This document shows, one piece after another, positions 8,526 to 21,471 of a stretch of 21,471 nucleotides of DNA. Source of the DNA: a virus. Position 1 is the first letter of the stretch, and every line of letters starts with the position of its first letter. Where the stretch lies: UHGV virus genome UHGV-0123286; one strand, 5' to 3'. The position numbers and the translations under genes were made by a program. The notes under the pieces were generated by a model, which did no database searches, was not told where the DNA came from, and was given only the letters and a program-made list of their open reading frames with translations.

Positions 8526-8569
8526 TCCCGCATTTCGGCGGGAATGAGGACCATGACTGTTAAAGAGCG
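8526..8569 (-). promoter_or_regulatory. nutR: boxA CGCTCTTTAA (8569..8560) and boxB hairpin TCCCGC-CGAAAT-GCGGGA (8543..8526)
   Basis: boxA consensus directly after cro stop; boxB inverted repeat identical to the one at nutL. Confidence 0.65.
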
Positions 8570-8575
8570 GTGTTA

Positions 8576-8770
8576 CTATTTGTTTTTCTTGTTGCTTGGG
8601 AAAGGACGAACTTCCTCTCCAATCACACTGCCATCAGGCTTTACCGTAACCATGATGTTACGGCCTGCCAGAATGGCCTTGCTGATAGCGCACTGGATTA
8701 CACCAAAGTCACTGGCTGCTTTAGCCTGTCCATGGATTTTGGCGTAATCGGCAAGTGTCATTCGAATCAT
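8576..8770 (-). CDS. cro: Cro repressor (lambda-Cro fold, different specificity), 64 aa
   Basis: From [39 protein letters not shown]...PFPSNKK; similar to lambda Cro in length and C-terminus; GGAGAG RBS. Confidence 0.8.
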
Positions 8771-8799
8771 ATGCACTCTCCGTTATTAACCATGAACAA

Positions 8800-8876: not shown

Positions 8877-9593
8877 ATGGAAAATAAAAAATCACTGACG
8901 ACAGAACAGCTCGAAGACGCTAAGCGGCTTAAGGCTTTGTATGAGTCAAAAAAGAAAGAATTGGGAATAACCCAATACTCAATCGCTGATGAACTGGGTA
9001 TCACCCAAGGAGCGGTAGGGCATTATCTTAATGGCAGAAACGCGCTAAACGTTGAGGTTGCATCTGGTTTTGCACGATTGTTGCAAGTCTCAATTGCTGA
9101 TTTTAGCCAGTCAATTGCTGCCAAGGTTGCAGAACAGGCAGAAAGCCTTAAGAGCGATGCCAACGTAAGGTATGCAGGGGAATACAGAGCAGGAAAGAGG
9201 TATCCGGTGTTAAGCAGTATCCAGGCTGGCTCGTGGTGTGAAGCATGCGAACCATACACCATTAAAGACATAGATGTTTGGCTTGAGTCTGACGCGCATA
9301 TTCAAGGTAATGCGTTCTGGCTTAAAGTGGAAGGTGATTCAATGACGGCACCGGTTGGGTTAAGCATTCCAGAGGGAACATTCGTTCTTTTCGATACCGG
9401 AAGGGAGGCGATCAACGGCAGCTTGGTCATAGCAAAACTTTCTGACTCTAACGAAGCAACATTCAAGAAGCTGATAATCGACGGCGGAAATAAATACCTC
9501 AAGGGACTTAACCCTGCATGGCCTCTCGTGCCAATCAATGGAAACTGCAAGATTATAGGCGTTGCAATTGAGACAAAACTAAGGCTGGTTTGA
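8877..9593 (+). CDS. cI: CI repressor (HTH N-domain plus S24 LexA-like autocleavage domain), 238 aa
   Basis: Overall alignment to lambda CI (LTQEQLEDARRLKAIYE.., C-terminal FWLEVEGNSMTAP.., FKKLI motifs) with divergent recognition helix. Confidence 0.9.
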   Translation: MENKKSLTTEQLEDAKRLKALYESKKKELGITQYSIADELGITQGAVGHYLNGRNALNVEVASGFARLLQVSIADFSQSIAAKVAEQAESLKSDANVRYAGEYRAGKRYPVLSSIQAGSWCEACEPYTIKDIDVWLESDAHIQGNAFWLKVEGDSMTAPVGLSIPEGTFVLFDTGREAINGSLVIAKLSDSNEATFKKLIIDGGNKYLKGLNPAWPLVPINGNCKIIGVAIETKLRLV

Positions 9594-10111: not shown

Positions 10112-10152
10112 ATACCTTGGGTATTTACACAATAAAATACCTACAGTATTCT
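10112..10152 (+). promoter_or_regulatory. OL operators (10112..10124 ATACCTTGGGTAT; 10137..10149 ATACCTACAGTAT) with pL (-35 TTTACA 10124..10129, -10 TATTCT 10147..10152)
   Basis: Same 13-bp palindrome family and 25-bp spacing as OR; hexamers 17 bp apart, oriented toward N. Confidence 0.55.
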
Positions 10153-10198
10153 TTAGCCATCAGCAGGACGCTGGAAGCCAAACGGAACAGATTGGCAG

Positions 10199-10239
10199 GC
10201 TCTTTAACATTGATGGGATTGTCCCGCCGAAATGCGGGA
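10199..10239 (+). promoter_or_regulatory. nutL: boxA GCTCTTTAACA (10199..10209) and boxB hairpin TCCCGCCGAAATGCGGGA (10222..10239)
   Basis: boxA consensus followed 12 nt later by an inverted repeat identical to nutR boxB, between pL and N. Confidence 0.65.
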
Positions 10240-10346
10240 ACCAAAGAGTAGTTGGCTTTGGGGTGACGTGAAGTGCAGCTGCACGACGGCAACCGGAAGA
10301 TAAGCACCCGGCGCGTCACCGCCAAAGTCAATCATCGGAGGTCAAC

Positions 10347-10652
10347 ATGACAGTAGTCATTACATACCTGGCTGACGATAACGCCAGAAACCGCCGCAGA
10401 GCACGCAGACAGGCTCAACGTGAACAGGCAATGCAAGAGCAGCGACTGGCGCGAAAAATTGCGCTAAAGCTCTCTGGTTGCGTCAGAGCAGACAAAGCAG
10501 CATCACTCGGAAGCCTTCGCTGCAAGAAGGTAGAAGAAGTCGAGAGTAAACAGAATCGTATTTACTACCGCAAGCCACGCAGTGAAATGGGTGTGACTTG
10601 TGTTGGTCGCCAGAAAATGAAATTAGGCAGCAAACCACTGTATGAGGGGTGA
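10347..10652 (+). CDS. N: N antiterminator, 101 aa
   Basis: Arginine-rich motif NARNRRRARRQAQ near N-terminus; C-terminus RIYYRKPRSEMGVTCVGRQKMK resembles lambda N C-terminus; GGAGG RBS. Confidence 0.85.
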   Translation: MTVVITYLADDNARNRRRARRQAQREQAMQEQRLARKIALKLSGCVRADKAASLGSLRCKKVEEVESKQNRIYYRKPRSEMGVTCVGRQKMKLGSKPLYEG

Positions 10653-10655
10653 TCT

Positions 10656-10907
10656 ATGGAATTTCATGAAAGTGCGATTTATGATTTTCGCGCTAACGCA
10701 AATTCAGTAAAACCACAGCCAATTGCAGTACTTTTTAAAACAATGGGTGCGTGGGCTGTTTTATGCTTCGCCGCTGATGACACTGACGCAAGAATGGCAA
10801 TAGGCCAAGAGATGGAGATGGACCCGACAAACGATGAATTCATAATTTATGGCGCTCCATCTAATTACTTACTTGATACCTGCAACATTTACAACAAGGC
10901 TGCCTGA
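10656..10907 (+). CDS. Hypothetical protein, 83 aa (position of lambda ral)
   Basis: ORF with GAGGGG RBS directly after N; no family recognised. Confidence 0.45.
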   Translation: MEFHESAIYDFRANANSVKPQPIAVLFKTMGAWAVLCFAADDTDARMAIGQEMEMDPTNDEFIIYGAPSNYLLDTCNIYNKAA

Positions 10908-10934
10908 TGGTGGCCTTTATTTTTAAGGTGCTAT

Positions 10935-14727: not shown

Positions 14728-15496
14728 TTACCAGGCACTGCGTGAGGCGGCGCAACTGGCAACACAGGGTGAATGGGTCGCATTTATTTCGTCTGGTACT
14801 GGTACATATGCGGTGCATACACCTGGTGATAAACGATGTGAAGACGTTATCAAATGGACCGGCTTTGATGGACAGAAAAATGCAGAGAACAACGCTCGTT
14901 ATATCGCAGCTTTCAACCCAGAAGTAGTGCAGGCGTTGCTGGACGAGCTGGAAGGCAAAGACAAACTGATTGCCGAGCTTGGAAAACAATGCGCCGAATG
15001 GGAGCGAAAAGCATTAAGTAACTTTGAAGAGTGTGCTGCGATGGCTGAACGTATCGAAGAGATGCAGACAAAATCTGCACCAGATTCGTTTGGCATCATC
15101 GGTGAAAATATTCGAACACAGGATAATCGAATAACATCAGACCCTATGTTTTGTGTGTATCAAAAGCGCGAAATCGTTGTTGATGCTGATTATGACTATG
15201 ACCGGATTGTCTGGGTTGATGAAGATGGCAATGAAGCCAATAAACGCCAAAGTCGTCGTCTCGAACTACTTCATGAAAACTTTCGGGAGCCACCAGAAAA
15301 ATGGCGGCGCGTTGCTGTGAAAGATATTGATGAATTCGTGACCTGCTGTTTCACCGAGCAGGGTTGTAAAGACTACCTGGCAGCCAATGGTCACAATCTT
15401 CGCTTGCCATTTATATATGTAAAAAGCGGTTTCAGGAACGCTGAATATATCGGCATAAGAAACTGGCTTGCTGGCATTCGCATCAAAGGAGAATGA
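14714..15496 (+). CDS. Hypothetical protein, about 260 aa (GTG start after AAGGAGG); possibly Ead/Ea22-like early-region family
   Basis: Strong RBS AAGGAGG 6 nt before GTG 14714; family assignment from memory only. Confidence 0.45.
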   Translation: MSEINYQALREAAQLATQGEWVAFISSGTGTYAVHTPGDKRCEDVIKWTGFDGQKNAENNARYIAAFNPEVVQALLDELEGKDKLIAELGKQCAEWERKALSNFEECAAMAERIEEMQTKSAPDSFGIIGENIRTQDNRITSDPMFCVYQKREIVVDADYDYDRIVWVDEDGNEANKRQSRRLELLHENFREPPEKWRRVAVKDIDEFVTCCFTEQGCKDYLAANGHNLRLPFIYVKSGFRNAEYIGIRNWLAGIRIKGE

Positions 15497-15497
15497 G

Positions 15498-16013
15498 ATG
15501 GCGTTAACACACCGCGAACTCTGTCAGATTGCCTACAGGTTCCTTAAGCGCAACGGGTTCAAGGTTTGCTTTCATGACCGCTTTGTTGCTGTAACCAGTA
15601 CTGGAGAACAACCAGATGCTATGGGATTCAGAAATTCAGCATCATGCCTGATAGAGGCGAAGTGTTCTCGTGCTGACTTGTTGGCAGATAGAAAAAAGCG
15701 TTTCCGTAAAAATCCCTCTCTTGGCATGGGGGACTGGCGATTCTTTATTAGTGAGCCGGGAATTATTTCAATTGAGGATTTACCACCTGGCTGGGGATTA
15801 CTTCACGTTGTTAACGGAAGAGTACGGAAAGTACATGGGTGGCCAAAGGGCAATTGCTGTTGGGGTAATCCTGACGATAAGCCATTTACTGGAAATAAGC
15901 AGGTTGAATGCGATTACATGTTATCGGCATTAAGGCGCATGGAGTTGAGAGGGCACCTTAATGAAATATATGACGGTGTAATTGTTAATAAGAAAGAAGG
16001 AAACGCGGCATGA
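15498..16013 (+). CDS. Putative PD-(D/E)xK-fold nuclease-like protein, 171 aa
   Basis: Motif ...GEQPDAMGFRNSASCLIEAKCS... (PD ... ExK spacing typical of restriction-endonuclease-like fold); AAGGAGAA RBS. Confidence 0.45.
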   Translation: MALTHRELCQIAYRFLKRNGFKVCFHDRFVAVTSTGEQPDAMGFRNSASCLIEAKCSRADLLADRKKRFRKNPSLGMGDWRFFISEPGIISIEDLPPGWGLLHVVNGRVRKVHGWPKGNCCWGNPDDKPFTGNKQVECDYMLSALRRMELRGHLNEIYDGVIVNKKEGNAA

Positions 16014-16690
16014 TCACTATTACCAAAGAGCGACTACTGACAATCAAGCAGTGGCGCGAAACATACGGACCTGGTAGCAACGTTGTGCTTCCAGCAGAAG
16101 AAGCGGAAGAGCTGGCACGGATTGCACTGGCATCACTGGCAGTAGTATCGGATGAACGAGCAGCCTATGAATTATTTATGGAGAAGCGTTTCGGGGAATC
16201 TGTAGATCGCCGTAGGGCAAAAAATGGCGATAGAGAATACATGGCATGGGATATGGCGCTTGGCTGGATTATCTGGTGTCACCGCGCCGCCATGCTTCAG
16301 GGTAGCCAACCTGTAAGCCAAACTTACAAGTTGCCAGTTAATACACCTTGCCAAGATGCGCCAGCCCATATCTGGCTACAAACGGCTGGAGTATGGCCAG
16401 AAGATGGCGAGTTAAGCGAATTAACGTGGTGCAGCCACAATCAGCACCATGATGACACGCTATATGTTCGAGCTGACCTTGTGAATGGCAACTATCCGGT
16501 AACTCCGGATAGTTGGATAAGCTGTAGTGAGCGAATGCCGAACGACGCGCAGTGGTGCGTAGTGAACACAGAATACGGGTATTACGCGCAATGCTGGTCT
16601 GAAGGTCAAGGGTGGCTTGGTGATGATATCAGCATCCCTGAATGCGATGTAATCAATTGGATGCCACTACCAGAACCGCCGCAGGGGTGA
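16010..16690 (+). CDS. Hypothetical protein with DUF551-like C-terminal domain, 226 aa
   Basis: ATG overlaps upstream stop (ATGA); C-terminus WISCSERMPNDAQWCVVNTEYGYYAQCWSEGQGWLGDD...WMPLPEPP resembles DUF551 of lambdoid early regions. Confidence 0.5.
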   Translation: MITITKERLLTIKQWRETYGPGSNVVLPAEEAEELARIALASLAVVSDERAAYELFMEKRFGESVDRRRAKNGDREYMAWDMALGWIIWCHRAAMLQGSQPVSQTYKLPVNTPCQDAPAHIWLQTAGVWPEDGELSELTWCSHNQHHDDTLYVRADLVNGNYPVTPDSWISCSERMPNDAQWCVVNTEYGYYAQCWSEGQGWLGDDISIPECDVINWMPLPEPPQG

Positions 16691-16756
16691 AATGATGCTT
16701 GGCCTGAAGTATTTTATGTAATTGGTATTGCTATATTTTTATCTGGGGATAAACGA

Positions 16757-16999
16757 ATGTTCTCTCTGATTCAACGTGGTCAGATATACACCGATAGCGC
16801 TGGCTATCCAGTAAAAATCATTCGTAGTACTGATCACTCAGTATTCTTCAAGAGGATGGATGGCTATCCTGGAAGAGTGTGCATCAGAAAATTCAATAAT
16901 TTATTCGAACACATTGATCACAGAGAATATCACCAGATCCTGGCTGAAACAGAACAGGAGAACCATCTGAAAAAATTACGTGCTATGCAAAGGAGATAA
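16757..16999 (+). CDS. Hypothetical protein, 80 aa
   Basis: ORF with GGGGATAAACGA upstream; no family recognised with confidence. Confidence 0.4.
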   Translation: MFSLIQRGQIYTDSAGYPVKIIRSTDHSVFFKRMDGYPGRVCIRKFNNLFEHIDHREYHQILAETEQENHLKKLRAMQRR

Positions 17000-17079
17000 A
17001 CCGGTAAAGGTGTTCGCGATAAAGGTGAATATCGGCAATGAATAACAATCCTCGAACTCGCGGGGATTTCTTTTATCTG

Positions 17080-17105
17080 AACTCGCTACGGCGAGTTTTG
17101 TTTTA
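17080..17105 (+). terminator. Intrinsic terminator
   Basis: AACTCGC-TACG-GCGAGTT hairpin followed by TTGTTTT. Confidence 0.5.
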
Positions 17106-17117
17106 TGGAGATGATAA

Positions 17118-17285
17118 ATGCACTTCCGAGTCACAGGTGAATGGAATGGAGAGCCATTCGACAGGGTTATCGAAGCAGAGGACATCAACGACTGCTATAA
17201 CCACTGGATGATATGGGCGCAGATAGCGCATGCAGACGTAACCAATATTCGAATTGAAGAACTGAAAGAACACCAAGCCGCCTGA
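17118..17285 (+). CDS. Small hypothetical protein, 55 aa, flanked by two terminators
   Basis: ATG with GGAG 8 nt upstream; MHFRVTGEWNGEPFDRVIEAEDINDCYNHWMIWAQIAHADVTNIRIEELKEHQAA. Confidence 0.4.
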   Translation: MHFRVTGEWNGEPFDRVIEAEDINDCYNHWMIWAQIAHADVTNIRIEELKEHQAA

Positions 17286-17300
17286 TGGCGGTTTTTTCTT
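17277..17300 (+). terminator. Intrinsic terminator upstream of xis
   Basis: CCGCC-TGAT-GGCGG hairpin followed by TTTTTTCTT; stop codon of the 55-aa ORF lies in the loop. Confidence 0.55.
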
Positions 17301-17324
17301 GCGTGTAATTGCGGAGACTTTGCG

Positions 17325-17543
17325 ATGTACTTAACACTTCAGGAGTGGAACGCACGCCAGCGGCGCCCAAGAAGCCTTGAAACAGTTCGTCGATGGGTAC
17401 GCGAGTGCAGGATATTCCCTCCTCCGGTTAAGGATGGAAGAGAGTATCTGTTCCACGAATCAGCGGTAAAGGTTGACTTAAATCGACCAGTAACAGGTAG
17501 CCTTTTGAAGAGGATCAGAAATGGGAAGAAGGCGAAGTCATGA
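17325..17543 (+). CDS. xis: Excisionase Xis, 72 aa
   Basis: Translation MYLTLQEWNARQRRPRSLETVRRWVRECRIFPPPVKDGREYLFHESAVKVDLNRP... is essentially identical to lambda Xis. Confidence 0.95.
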   Translation: MYLTLQEWNARQRRPRSLETVRRWVRECRIFPPPVKDGREYLFHESAVKVDLNRPVTGSLLKRIRNGKKAKS

Positions 17544-18594
17544 GCGCCGGGATTTACCTCCTAACCTTTATATAAGAAACAATGGATATTACTGCTACAG
17601 GGACCCAAGGACGGGTAAAGAGTTTGGATTAGGCCGAGACAGGAGGATAGCAATCACTGAAGCTATACAGGCCAACATTGAGTTACTCTCAGACAGCGGA
17701 CGCAAATCACTGATAGACAGAATTAAAGGCGGTGACGCAATCACTCTTCATGTGTGGCTTGACCGATATGAAAGAATCCTCACCGAAAGGGGGATCAGGC
17801 CGAAAACTCTACTCGACTACGCCAGCAAAATCAGGGCAATCCGAAGAAAATTGCCGGACAAACCGCTCACTGACATATCAACGAAAGAAGTGGCAGCAAT
17901 GCTAAACACCTACGTAGCAGAAGGTAAAGCAGCTTCCGCAAAATTAATCAGGTCAACCCTTGTTGACGTTTTTCGTGAAGCAATAGCCGAGGGGCATGTG
18001 GCAACGAATCCGGTAACAGCAACCCGTACAGCAAAGTCAGAAGTAAGGCGCTCAAGGCTGACAGCTAATGAGTATGTCGAGATTTACCATGCAGCCGAAC
18101 CTCTCCCTATCTGGCTAAGGCTGGCGATGGATTTGGCCGTCGTTACAGGGCAGAGAGTCGGCGATTTGTGCAGAATGAAATGGTCAGACATAAACGACAA
18201 CCATCTTCACATTGAACAGAGTAAAACAGGGGCTAAACTCGCCATTCCGCTAATGCTAACGATTGACGCGCTCAATATCTCATTGGCTGATACACTACAG
18301 AAATGCAGGGATGCCAGCAGCAGTGAAACTATAATCGCATCAAAGCATCACGATCCGCTTTCCCCGAAAACAGTATCAAAGTATTTTACAAAGGCGAGAA
18401 ATGCATCTGGACTCTCATTTGATGGAAACCCGCCAACATTCCATGAACTGCGTAGCCTGTCAGCGAGGCTATACCGGAACCAGATTGGCGATAAGTTTGC
18501 TCAACGTCTTCTCGGGCATAAATCAGATTCAATGGCGGCGCGGTATAGGGACAGCCGTGGACGGGAATGGGACAAAATTGAAATCGACAAATGA
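17521..18594 (+). CDS. int: Tyrosine integrase (lambda/HK022 Int family), 357 aa
   Basis: Translation MGRRRSHERRDLPPNLYIRNNGYYCYRDPRTGKEFGLGRDRRIAITEAIQANIEL... near-identical to lambda Int N-terminus; catalytic region HELRSLSARLY...HKSD..AARY; start overlaps xis. Confidence 0.95.
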   Translation: MGRRRSHERRDLPPNLYIRNNGYYCYRDPRTGKEFGLGRDRRIAITEAIQANIELLSDSGRKSLIDRIKGGDAITLHVWLDRYERILTERGIRPKTLLDYASKIRAIRRKLPDKPLTDISTKEVAAMLNTYVAEGKAASAKLIRSTLVDVFREAIAEGHVATNPVTATRTAKSEVRRSRLTANEYVEIYHAAEPLPIWLRLAMDLAVVTGQRVGDLCRMKWSDINDNHLHIEQSKTGAKLAIPLMLTIDALNISLADTLQKCRDASSSETIIASKHHDPLSPKTVSKYFTKARNASGLSFDGNPPTFHELRSLSARLYRNQIGDKFAQRLLGHKSDSMAARYRDSRGREWDKIEIDK

Positions 18595-18688
18595 TTTTAT
18601 TTTGACTAATAATGACCTGCTTACATTAATTCATTGATAATAAAAGAGATTTCAAATATACAACTTATTCACCTAAAGTGCACCGACC
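18595..18688. other. attL: P' arm with arm-type Int sites (18596..18620) and candidate core/overlap region (about 18661..18685)
   Basis: Minus-strand reads CAGGTCATTAT-TAGTCAAAAT-AAAATCATT, close to lambda P'1-P'3 arm sites; core candidate GCACTTTAGGTGAATAAG resembles the HK022-type core as I recall it. Confidence 0.6.
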
Positions 18689-21421
18689 GTGAATTTAACC
18701 CTGACCCGAAGACTCTGGATGGGCTTTGCCCTGATGGCGCTGTTAACCCTGACCAGTACCCTGGTGGGATGGTACAACCTGCGCTTTATCAGCCAGGTGG
18801 AAAAAGACAACACTCAGGCATTGATTCCTACCATGAATATGGCGCGCCAGTTGAGCGAAGCCAGCGCCTGGGAACTTTTCGCCGCGCAGAACCTGACCAG
18901 TGCCGATAACGAAAAGATGTGGCAGGCGCAGGGGCGAATGCTCACCGCACAAAGCCTGAAGATTAATGCGTTGCTGCAAGCGTTACGGGAACAAGGTTTT
19001 GACACCACCGCTATTGAACAACAGGAGCAGGAGATCTCCCGTTCGTTACGTCAGCAAGGGGAACTGGTGGGGCAGCGTTTGCAACTTCGCCAGCAACAAC
19101 AGCAACTCAGTCAGCAGATAGTCGCCGCCGCCGATGAAATCGCACGCCTGGCGCAAGGTCAGGCGAATAATGCGGCAACCTCCGCCGGAGCGACCCAGGC
19201 CGGGATTTACGATTTGATCGAACAACATCAGCGTCAAGCCGCAGAAAGTGCACTCGATCGGCTGATTGATATCGATCTTGAGTATGTTAACCAGATGAAT
19301 GAACTGCGCCTTAGCGCCCTGCGGGTGCAGCAAATGGTGATGAATCTGGGGCTGGAACAGATCCAGAAAAATGCGCCAACGCTGGAAAAGCAGCTCAATA
19401 ATGCGGTGAAAATTCTGCAACGTCGGCAAATACGCATTGAAGATCCGGGTGTTCGTACTCAGGTAGCAACAACGTTAACTACCGTTAGCCAATATAGCGA
19501 TTTGCTGGCGCTGTATCAGCAGGACAGTGAAATCAGCAATCACCTGCAAACTCTCGCCCAAAATAACATCGCCCAATTCGCGCAGTTTAGTAGCGAAGTC
19601 AGTCAGCTGGTCGACACCATTGAGCTGCGTAATCAGCACGGGCTGGCACATCTGGAAAAAGCCAGTGCACGCGGGCAATACAGCCTGTTATTGCTGGGAT
19701 TAGTTTCTCTTTGCGCACTGATTCTGATCCTCTGGCGCGTGGTTTATCGCTCAGTCACGCGCCCTCTTGCAGAACAAACGCAGGCGCTGCAACGCTTGCT
19801 GGATGGTGATATCGACTCCCCTTTCCCGGAAACCGCTGGCGTACGGGAACTGGATACCATCGGGCGGCTGATGGATGCGTTTCGCAGCAGTGTTCATGCA
19901 CTGAATCGCCACCGCGAACAGCTGGCGGCGCAGGTCAAAGCGCGTACAGCTGAATTGCAGGAACTGGTGATAGAACACCGACAGGCACGGGCGGAAGCAG
20001 AAAAAGCCAGCCAGGCAAAATCGGCGTTTCTGGCGGCGATGAGCCATGAGATCCGCACACCGCTGTACGGTATTCTCGGCACCGCACAGCTGCTGGCAGA
20101 TAACCCCGCACTTAACGCCCAGCGCGATGATTTGCGGGCGATTACCGACTCTGGTGAATCGTTGCTGACCATCCTCAACGATATTCTCGATTATTCGGCT
20201 ATCGAAGCAGGCGGCAAGAATGTTTCGGTCAGCGATGAACCCTTTGAACCGCGCCCGCTGCTGGAAAGTACCCTGCAATTAATGAACGGAAGGGTGAAAG
20301 GTCGCCCGATTCGCCTGGCAACAGAAATTGCCGACGATGTACCGACTGCGTTAATGGGCGATCCGCGGCGTATTCGTCAGGTCATTACCAACCTGTTGAG
20401 CAACGCCCTGCGTTTCACCGACGAAGGGCACATTATTCTGCGTAGTCGCACTGATGGCGAACAATGGCTGGTCGAAGTGGAAGACAGCGGCTGCGGTATT
20501 GATCCCGCGAAACTGGCTGAAATCTTCCAGCCATTTGTTCAGGTTAGCGGCAAACGCGGCGGCACCGGGCTGGGGCTGACTATCAGTAGCCGTCTGGCCC
20601 AGGCGATGGGCGGCGAATTGAGCGCCACCAGCACGCCGGAGGTTGGAAGCTGTTTTTGTTTACGCGTGCCGTTACGTGTTGCCACTGCACCCGTGCCAAA
20701 AACAGTCAATCAGGCGGTGCGTCTGGACGGTTTACGTTTGCTGTTAATTGAAGATAACCCGCTAACCCAGCGGATTACCGTTGAGATGTTGAACAGCAGT
20801 GGGGCGCAGGTCGTTGCCGTAGGAAATGCCGCGCAGGCTTTAGAGACACTGCAAAATAGTGAACCGTTTGCTGCCGCACTGGTGGATTTTGATCTACCGG
20901 ATATCGACGGCATTACGCTTGCCCGACAACTGGCACAGCAATATCCGTCGCTGGTTTTGATTGGCTTTAGCGCCCATGTCATTGACGAAACACTGCGACA
21001 GCGTACCAGTTCGCTATTTCGCGGGATTATCCCTAAACCGGTGCCGCGTGAAGTGCTCGGTCAATTACTGGCGCACTATCTCCAACTGCAAGTCAATAAC
21101 GATCAACCACTGGATGTATCGCAACTCAATGAAGATGCTCATTTAATGGGGGCGGAGAAGATCCACGAATGGCTGATATTATTTAAACAACATGCCCTGC
21201 CGCTTCTCGATGAAATCGACATTGCCCGCGCCAGTCAGGATAACGAGAAAATAAAGCGTGCCGCACATCAGCTAAAAAGCAGTTGCTCGAGTCTGGGAAT
21301 GCGTAGCGCCAGCCAGCAATGCGCACAACTGGAGCAGCAGCCATTATCTGCCCCCCTTCCACACGAAGAAATTACACGCAGTGTTGCCGCTCTGGAAGCA
21401 TGGTTAATAAGAAAGACCTGA
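18689..21421 (+). CDS. torS: Hybrid sensor histidine kinase TorS (TMAO respiration two-component system), 910 aa
   Basis: Translation [41 protein letters not shown]... with H-box SHEIRTP, receiver domain and C-terminal HPt matches E. coli TorS; GTG start. Confidence 0.95.
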
Positions 21422-21471
21422 ACGCGATTTGAATCAATATCAGCCAGTTAAGAACAACTAGAATAGTGGCA

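Follow-up and report, generated by a model that had tools for sequence, protein, structure and literature searches.

The lambda orf55 homologue upstream of xis: a conserved small gene between terminator-like hairpins, probably at the distal end of an N-antiterminated early operon

Genes and hairpins at the orf55 locus

We analysed a stretch of 21,471 nt from the virus genome UHGV-0123286 (referred to as the window), focusing on a small gene located just upstream of xis and int. The open reading frame at 17118..17285 on the plus strand starts with ATG, encodes 55 amino acids and matched PHROG 676 in a profile search over its entire length (E 5.4e-39, residues 1-55 of 55); a Pfam search gave no family for the protein. 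At the DNA level the segment is 96% identical to positions 29073-29361 of phage lambda, and the encoded protein differs from lambda Orf55 in 3 of 55 residues. By sequence, the ORF is thus a homologue of lambda orf55 (lambdap35, NP_597778), and we refer to it by this name. The lambda record marks the gene as "predicted by GeneMark", and in E. coli genomes it carries the PGAP label "hypothetical protein". The segment is found in 326 phage records at the megablast level, and a 571-nt query (16990-17560) matched 2858 of the 5426 complete E. coli genomes, being 100% identical in the strains 165, CREC-591 and 779 as well as in the chromosome record NZ_CM188248.1. Species-representative genomes were also considered as a source of diversity and were discarded, as the matches were mostly phage lambda contamination in unrelated assemblies and no diversity was gained.

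On the 5' side of orf55, the DUF4222 gene (16757-16999, plus strand) is followed directly by the 3' remnant of an ASCH-domain gene (17001..17045, plus strand), which comprises the last 14 codons, PVKVFAIKVNIGNE, and the stop. The remnant was recognized from a reading against HK022 and a survey of upstream genes, according to which an ASCH-domain gene precedes tL4 in HK022-type phages. Located immediately 3' of the DUF4222 stop, it marks a mosaic joint, and homology to HK022 begins at position 16995 of the window. Next come two stem-loops on the plus strand, each followed by a T-tract. Hairpin 1 (17047..17076, stem-loop 17047-17068) reads AATCCTCG-AACTCG-CGGGGATT and continues into TCTTTTAT, and hairpin 2 (17079..17106, stem-loop 17079-17098) reads GAACTCGC-TACG-GCGAGTTT and continues into TGTTTTAT. 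The Shine-Dalgarno sequence GGAG of orf55 (17107-17110, plus strand) lies 7 nt 5' of the ATG, is unchanged across 16 aligned variants and coincides with a ribosome-binding site annotated at the equivalent position in the phage 434 record OL657226. At the other end of the gene, hairpin 3 (17275..17298, stem-loop 17275-17294, plus strand) reads AAGCCGCC-TGAT-GGCGGTTT followed by TTTCTT. Most of its 5' arm consists of the two C-terminal alanine codons GCC GCC, and the TGA stop (17283-17285) forms bases 1 to 3 of the four-base loop.

Directly downstream, a cII box of the form TTGC-N6-TTGC (17299..17312, plus strand) starts at the final T of the hairpin-3 T-run; the same sequence is annotated in the 434 record as the pI (integrase) promoter and cII binding site. 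The excisionase gene xis (17325-17543, plus strand, 72 amino acids; Pfam Exc, E 3.9e-41; PHROG 629) starts 39 nt 3' of the orf55 stop, and its ATG (17325) lies within the pI promoter region, as it does in lambda. It is followed by int (17521-18594, plus strand), identified by ORF reading and comparison with HK022, whose product has the same length as HK022 Int (357 amino acids), and int is adjoined by the host gene torS (18689-21421). The HK022 attachment site is described as adjoining torS (PMC6814406); the xis-int module of the window, next to torS, is of the HK022 type, unlike that of lambda.

All three hairpins consist of a G+C-rich stem-loop and a subsequent T-run on the transcribed strand and passed the scan for intrinsic terminators. 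Compared with dinucleotide shuffles, the folding energies were -9.7 kcal/mol for hairpin 1 (z -3.2), -11.9 kcal/mol for hairpin 2 (8 pairs, z -3.8) and -13.0 kcal/mol for hairpin 3 (z -2.7), and the 71-nt stretch with hairpins 1 and 2 reached a z of -4.3, with 0 of 200 shuffles folding equally well. Scanning positions 15000-21471 revealed 12 terminator-like sites as opposed to 6.3 ± 2.1 in shuffled sequences, three of which are located on the plus strand within 250 nt around orf55. The first-pass annotation had described the small ORF as bracketed by two terminators, with its stop codon in the downstream hairpin loop, and placed immediately upstream of xis; indeed, scan and folding recovered both hairpins (17079-17098 and 17275-17294), and the stop codon and the position relative to xis are as it stated. 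It had overlooked the third plus-strand hairpin at 17047-17068. In that hairpin the window carries an A at a position where most copies have a C, and as a result its stem comprises 8 rather than 9 pairs. We also considered an attenuator based on pairing of the GAACTCGC repeat in the loop of hairpin 1 with its copy in the arm of hairpin 2, and rejected it because the repeat is peculiar to the A variant of the window and absent in most copies.

The hairpins could be matched to features annotated in related phages. Hairpin 1 maps to the position of the "tL4 terminator" in HK022 (X51962) and of "t-L4" in 434 (M60848). The homologue of hairpin 3 is labelled "t' I" in the P22-pbi record (AF527608) and as a rho-independent terminator in the HK140 record; the window has this P22 sequence just before the cII box of pI, and the 434 genome OL657226 likewise shows a terminator (citing PMID 6305007) directly 5' of the cII-controlled pI promoter. 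Hairpin 2 is without annotation in the GenBank records that name tL4 or t'I and appears only in a prediction from 2014 (PMC4195576), in which ARNold identified lambda t3, t4 and t5, corresponding to hairpins 1, 2 and 3 (Table 4 therein). Lambda orf55, flanked by these hairpins, closes the exo-xis region. By sequence correspondence, hairpins 1, 2 and 3 are therefore tL4, a tandem partner of tL4, and t'I. A scan of the whole window against Rfam at gathering thresholds gave no match, which places the hairpins outside the curated RNA families, and literature searches on tL4 and on the 1983 integrase-promoter and t'I work returned nothing relevant.

Lambda itself shares with the window the hairpins and the ribosome-binding site, the stop codon located in the loop, the way the cassette directly joins the cII box of pI and xis, and the place within the pL operon; it differs in the upstream neighbour, which is ea8.5 in lambda and the DUF4222 gene with the ASCH remnant in the window. 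The orf55 cassette is hence a well-known, uncharacterised lambda gene in a layout that is usual among lambdoid prophages. The records of lambda, 434, HK022 and P22 together with the 2014 paper already contain the gene, the three hairpins around it and their relation to pI and xis. Two points we regard as mildly new: divergent homologues again show the unit of gene and terminator, and the mosaic joints map to terminator and Shine-Dalgarno segments.

Conservation of the cassette and its joints

Conservation was assessed in 103 loci with a full-length orf55. Hairpin 2, the GGAG, orf55 and hairpin 3 are near-constant across these loci, while the flanking genes vary, which bears out conservation of gene and terminators as a unit. 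Hairpin 1 is terminator-like in 86-90 and hairpin 2 in 99-101 of the 103 loci. The core of hairpin 3, CCGCC-TGAT-GGCGG with its T-run, is present in 88 of 103, whatever gene follows. In 13 of 103 loci, however, a D54 codon (GAC) leaves hairpin 3 with a stem of four G-C pairs, and in phage 434 the hairpin at the end of orf55 is broken (GGAGG), so that a hairpin at this position is not always kept.

The variation within the upstream stems is mostly compatible with pairing. In one variant of hairpin 1 (v10) the third pair is A-U instead of U-A and a U-G pair has been replaced by U-A, the latter change also being found in 434, and in some loci the hairpin is replaced by an unrelated AACCCGC..GCGGGTT or CCGC..GCGG stem in front of an unchanged T-tract. 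Variants of hairpin 2 keep wobble pairing (U-A to U-G, C-G to U-G). Among 16 distinct variants, 92.6% of the cells in the two upstream helices are paired, compared with 36-54% for slid partners. Double changes occur at two pairs; this covariation is modest and weakly informative, since the copies are more than 90% identical. Taken together, the compensatory changes and the replacement of the hairpin before the same T-tract suggest, at the level of sequence comparison, selection for a stem-loop plus U-tract and not for a particular sequence.

The surroundings of the cassette are diverse. Upstream, at least 10 unrelated genes were found among the 103 loci, including two ea8.5 variants, DUF551, ASCH and DUF4222 genes. 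Downstream of the hairpin-3 T-run there are at least five contexts, among them a lambda/HK022-type xis with pI, two other small excisionase-like genes and ORF114. Unlike in the window, orf55 is followed by the extra gene ORF114 in 434 and HK022, and after it a non-homologous hairpin (GCCGCATCAATGCGGC plus TTTTCTT) takes the place of t'I ahead of the same pI sequence. In spite of the replaced sequence, a terminator immediately 5' of pI has therefore been kept. Partial modules were also found: P22, L and Sf101 retain only the last 64 nt of orf55 with hairpin 3, in Salmonella phage ST160 a different small ORF follows hairpins 1 and 2, and in the Stx2 phage 1717 hairpin 2 and the GGAG are joined straight to ORF114 with no orf55 between them, a pattern that an insertion of orf55 would give, but elsewhere both flanks vary too. 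Homology breaks off at three places, namely where hairpin 1 begins on its 5' side, in the interval separating it from hairpin 2, and past the T-run of hairpin 3. From these break points and from the module variants lacking orf55 we conclude that terminator, T-run and Shine-Dalgarno segments are joints of lambdoid mosaics, and since the cassette is delimited by such recombination joints, it moves as a unit between different neighbours. The locus is thus a documented case of terminator-plus-ribosome-binding-site segments acting as joints of lambdoid mosaics, and the homologous segments of other prophages can be confidently annotated as tL4, a second terminator in tandem with it, orf55, t'I, pI and xis.

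Position in the early operon and predicted expression

Upstream of orf55 the window contains the elements expected of a leftward early operon. The co-oriented block includes a gene for a cI-like repressor (8877-9593, plus strand), followed on the same strand by a pL-like promoter (10124-10152, PWM scan), a nutL-like site (10198-10240) with a boxA-like GGCTCTTTA (10198-10206) and a hairpin at about 10222-10240, and an N-like antiterminator gene (10347-10652; PHROG 271, E 6e-38). A sieB-like gene, erf, ssb, abc2, DUF551 and DUF4222 come next. Every gene from the N-like gene to orf55 lies on the same strand, and orf55 is the second-to-last gene before int in this block. The operon harbors about nine terminator-like hairpins on the plus strand, and the one at 10896-10917 holds another stop codon within a TGAT loop. 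As terminators are this frequent in an N-antiterminated operon, being bracketed by them is nothing special for orf55.

No sigma-70-like site was detected by consensus scan in 16940-17125, bearing in mind that weak, non-consensus or activator-dependent promoters overlapping the hairpins could escape such a scan. The best PWM score in this region was 2.7 bits, which ranks 656th on the plus strand, as compared with 9-11 bits for the top sites of the window, including the pL-like promoter. Moreover, only 8 nt separate the stem end of hairpin 2 (17098) from the Shine-Dalgarno sequence.

Based on these results, we consider orf55 with its hairpins to be an early gene without a promoter of its own that lies just before xis-int, distally in the N-antiterminated leftward (pL) operon, and we assign a probability of about 85% to this reading. 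Identity, anatomy, conservation, coding selection, the absence of a promoter-like site and the operon context were computed here; termination at the three hairpins and its suppression by N we infer from sequence, database annotation and established lambda biology. According to this model, transcription from pL would begin after induction or infection, and N would modify RNA polymerase at nutL, leading to read-through of all terminators of the operon, including tL4, hairpin 2 and t'I. Because the N-modified polymerase would pass these terminators, Orf55, Xis and Int would be produced as delayed-early products. Polymerase that is not modified by N, including any that starts leakily or internally within the accessory genes of the repressed prophage, would be halted by the hairpins, and xis, whose start codon lies inside pI, would thereby be spared accidental transcription. 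The cII-activated pI promoter, beginning with the final T of the t'I T-run, could then work on a clean background and yield Int without Xis. The stop codon in the hairpin loop is an instance of compact packing, which recurs elsewhere in the operon and in distant homologues. The proposal of the first-pass annotation that the terminators limit read-through into xis-int unless antiterminated is supported by sequence in both parts: the hairpins are suitably placed and have homologues annotated as tL4 (HK022, 434) and t'I (P22, 434), and the N-like gene, the nutL-like site and the pL-like promoter lie upstream on the same strand.

The same annotation had likened the arrangement to a moron (Juhala et al. 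2000; reviewed in PMC3594210). Orf55 shares with morons that it is small and accessory, that a terminator follows on its 3' side (here hairpin 3, directly after the gene), that it is variably present in related phages, as illustrated by phage 1717 and by the truncated copy in P22, and that the cassette sits among varied neighbours. Morons are described as having a promoter and terminator of their own, deviating in GC content and being expressed while the prophage is repressed (PMC3594210), and for orf55 this would imply autonomous expression, insulated by the upstream terminator. The results speak against it. No promoter-like site was found upstream by either the consensus or the PWM scan, hairpin 2 leaves no space for one before the Shine-Dalgarno sequence, and the GC content of orf55 (48.2%) equals the prophage average (46.8%) and is close to that of xis (49.3%) and int (47.6%). 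In addition, orf55 is predicted to be co-transcribed within a co-oriented early operon, and its homologues are likewise embedded in early operons, with overlapping neighbours. We therefore regard autonomous, moron-like expression as very improbable.

Two further explanations concern the hairpins themselves. They might mainly be recombination linkers at mosaic joints, with little or no regulatory role, the upstream terminators already stopping unmodified pL transcripts. The breaks in homology exactly at the hairpin edges, the hairpin modules lacking orf55 in Salmonella and Stx phages and the weakened copies of hairpin 3 in some loci are in line with such a role, but hairpin 1 and the hairpin preceding pI in 434 and HK022 have been swapped for unrelated ones with the T-tract kept, and pairing is preserved in the variants, which makes a linker function as the main explanation improbable. 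Linker and regulatory roles are not mutually exclusive. Alternatively, hairpin 3 could chiefly serve the opposite strand, or RNA stability or processing, for instance as a 3' protective stem of a processed orf55 mRNA. In the P22-pbi record, the homologue of this hairpin is annotated as a minus-strand feature, namely the 3' end of the aI (antisense anti-int) RNA, and our scan gave weak terminator-like readings on the minus strand at 17291-17278 and 17287-17271. The minus-strand tail is T-poor (CTTGGTGTTC), however, its fold has a z of only -1.7, and a consensus scan found no promoter-like site on the minus strand within xis or int of the window; this explanation we consider the least probable of all, with hardly any weight. 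An Hfq-bound prophage sRNA was also considered and dismissed, as the sRNAs of EHEC are located downstream of PR' and not at the orf55 locus (PMC4104026). The promoterless early gene read through by N-modified polymerase thus remains our preferred reading.

The Orf55 protein and its distant relatives

Orf55 is acidic, with a net charge of -7. In 52 distinct coding sequences the variable sites are distributed over the three codon positions as 11/3/20, with a pN/pS of 0.20, and the gene is intact in all loci but one, the exception being HK022 (X51962), in which a 1-nt deletion breaks the ORF. From this we conclude that Orf55 is a real, conserved protein under coding selection. AlphaFold2 predicted a beta-beta-alpha-beta fold (pLDDT 90), in agreement with a published model (PMC8614690). 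In a Foldseek search T7 Gp2 ranked best, with non-significant E values of 0.037-0.3, TM scores of 0.56-0.62 and an identity of 23-25%; this weak, model-based resemblance matches the Gp2-like ranking published for lambda Orf55 (PMC8614690). Judging from the model, Orf55 would share with T7 Gp2, RNAP epsilon/YkzG and phi29 p56 the property of being a small acidic beta-beta-alpha-beta protein. A sequence relation to Gp2 or to other solved structures was dismissed, since a profile search of PDB sequences with Orf55 gave chance matches only, and a role in defence or anti-defence was set aside, there being no PADLOC and no Pfam match.

An exhaustive HMMER search yielded 55 cluster representatives, which were mostly close relatives, fragments and chimeras and included a few full-length distant relatives at 38-56% identity. 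The latter share W9, N10, F14, the IEAED motif, D25 and W33, and the net charge across the family ranges from -4 to -8. All distant homologues that could be placed occupy early-operon positions, in line with their neighbours: P0101 directly after gene N in three different contexts, P0105 near pL, P0102 two genes before xis/int and overlapping its neighbours, and P0107 after replication genes. Two lineages repeat the arrangement of a stop codon in a terminator loop: at four loci (L115 and L121-123) the gene ends with an alanine codon and a stop inside a hairpin loop followed by a T-run; at five others with overlapping genes (L111-114 and L120), no hairpin was found at the gene end.

Concerning function, earlier work is reported to have implicated the region with orf73, ea22, ea8.5 and orf55 in inhibiting the initiation of host DNA replication (PMC9239242). 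We infer that Orf55 is an early host-directed binder or inhibitor. More speculatively, this acidic protein might act early by inhibiting a nucleic-acid enzyme of the host, RNA polymerase being the leading published guess; a putative Gp2-like action on that enzyme has been put forward in the literature. In a CRISPRi essentiality screen of lambda, lambdap35 was outside the tested genes.

The distant relatives also raise the idea that an orf55-type gene and the terminator hairpin enclosing its stop form an old, co-inherited, promoterless cassette. The hairpin-enclosed stop indeed recurs at L115 and L121-123, and relatives that are about 40-55% identical sit elsewhere in early operons, for example directly after N; we consider this idea rather improbable. 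If it were true, selection would couple the expression of an acidic early protein to a strong drop in transcription just after it, and the joints of terminator and Shine-Dalgarno sequence would be exchange points for the shuffling of cassettes. Taken together with the putative Gp2-like fold, the idea would also allow for Orf55 acting early and widely among temperate phages as a modulator of the host RNA polymerase or of the initiation of replication. The orf55 family reaches divergent genes of early operons, which may aid the search for the role of the lambda protein.

Stop codons within terminator loops

In the same operon as orf55 (17118-17285), the 55-aa ORF whose stop codon lies in the loop of the t'I hairpin (17275-17294), we found a second terminator-like hairpin at 10896-10917, AAGGCTGCC-TGAT-GGTGGCCTT, which is followed by TATTTTT. 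Its TGAT loop contains the stop codon of an 83-aa ORF (10656-10907), from which we conclude that orf55 is not alone in having its stop within a loop. Distant homologues of orf55, with about 40-55% identity to the protein encoded in the window (L121-L123, 2501-2662; L115, 2501-2668; L111-L114; L120), are located immediately behind gene N, close to pL, two genes upstream of xis/int or past the replication genes, and where they have an intergenic gap downstream, the stop codon again lies within the loop of a terminator hairpin.

The orf55 copy of HK022 (L001, X51962, 324-345) has lost 1 nt behind its ATG (atgccttcc vs atgcacttcc), owing to which its product comprises 30 aa; either this copy is a pseudogene or the deletion is an error of the old sequence. 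In phage 434 (L002), a C-to-A change (GGAGG) at 525-545 breaks the orf55-terminal hairpin, and the annotated t'I before pI, the cII-activated integrase promoter, is an unrelated hairpin (GCCGCATCAATGCGGC, 968-991). Both the hairpin at the orf55 end and the one before pI (930-955) are intact in HK022. ORF114 is located between the two hairpins.

The genome contig search also returned orf55 matches in genome assemblies from, among others, Shewanella, Pseudomonas, Chromatium, Oceanobacillus and Kitasatospora (L009-L024). The contigs that carry them either measure about 48.4-48.5 kb or are tiny and of low coverage, and the matches agree with lambda exactly at the sequence level, which looks like contamination of the assemblies with phage lambda DNA.

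Hairpins 1 and 2 and the upstream joint

Hairpins 1 (tL4, 17047-17068) and 2 (17079-17098) also occur without orf55. In Stx2 phage 1717 (L119, 900-980), both hairpins and GGAG are joined straight to ORF114, orf55 being absent, and in ST160 (L118, 905-1116) they are followed by an unannotated hydrophobic ORF of about 48 aa upstream of xis. HK022-type phages have an ASCH-domain gene preceding tL4, the 3' remnant of which (PVKVFAIKVNIGNE*, 17001-17045) is found in the window directly after the DUF4222 stop (16999); we therefore place a mosaic replacement joint at about 17000. Originally, tL4 was located 2 nt past the stop of the ASCH gene.

Promoter-like sites and antitermination signals

A promoter-like site on the + strand (GTGAAA-17-TATTTT, 16687-16715; 9.4 bits, rank 5 on that strand) is located about 40 nt 5' of the DUF4222 gene (16757-16999). 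Should this site be active, the series of tL4, hairpin 2 and t'I would bar its transcripts from xis. The region 10124-10240 contains a pL-like promoter (TTTACA-17-TATTCT) and a nutL-like element, composed of a boxA-like GGCTCTTTA and the hairpin TCCCGC-CGAAAT-GCGGGA, and a nutR-like element with an exact boxA CGCTCTTTA (8561-8569, - strand) adjoins a cro-like ORF (8576-8776). In combination with the N-like gene (10347-10652), these motifs indicate a putative N/nut antitermination system.

At the prophage end that carries int and att, promoter-like sites at 18584-18641 and 18651-18679 face the host gene torS (18689-21421). In HK022 lysogens, torS is reported to be driven by an outward-reading promoter of the phage (PMC6814406), and the predicted sites fit this promoter.
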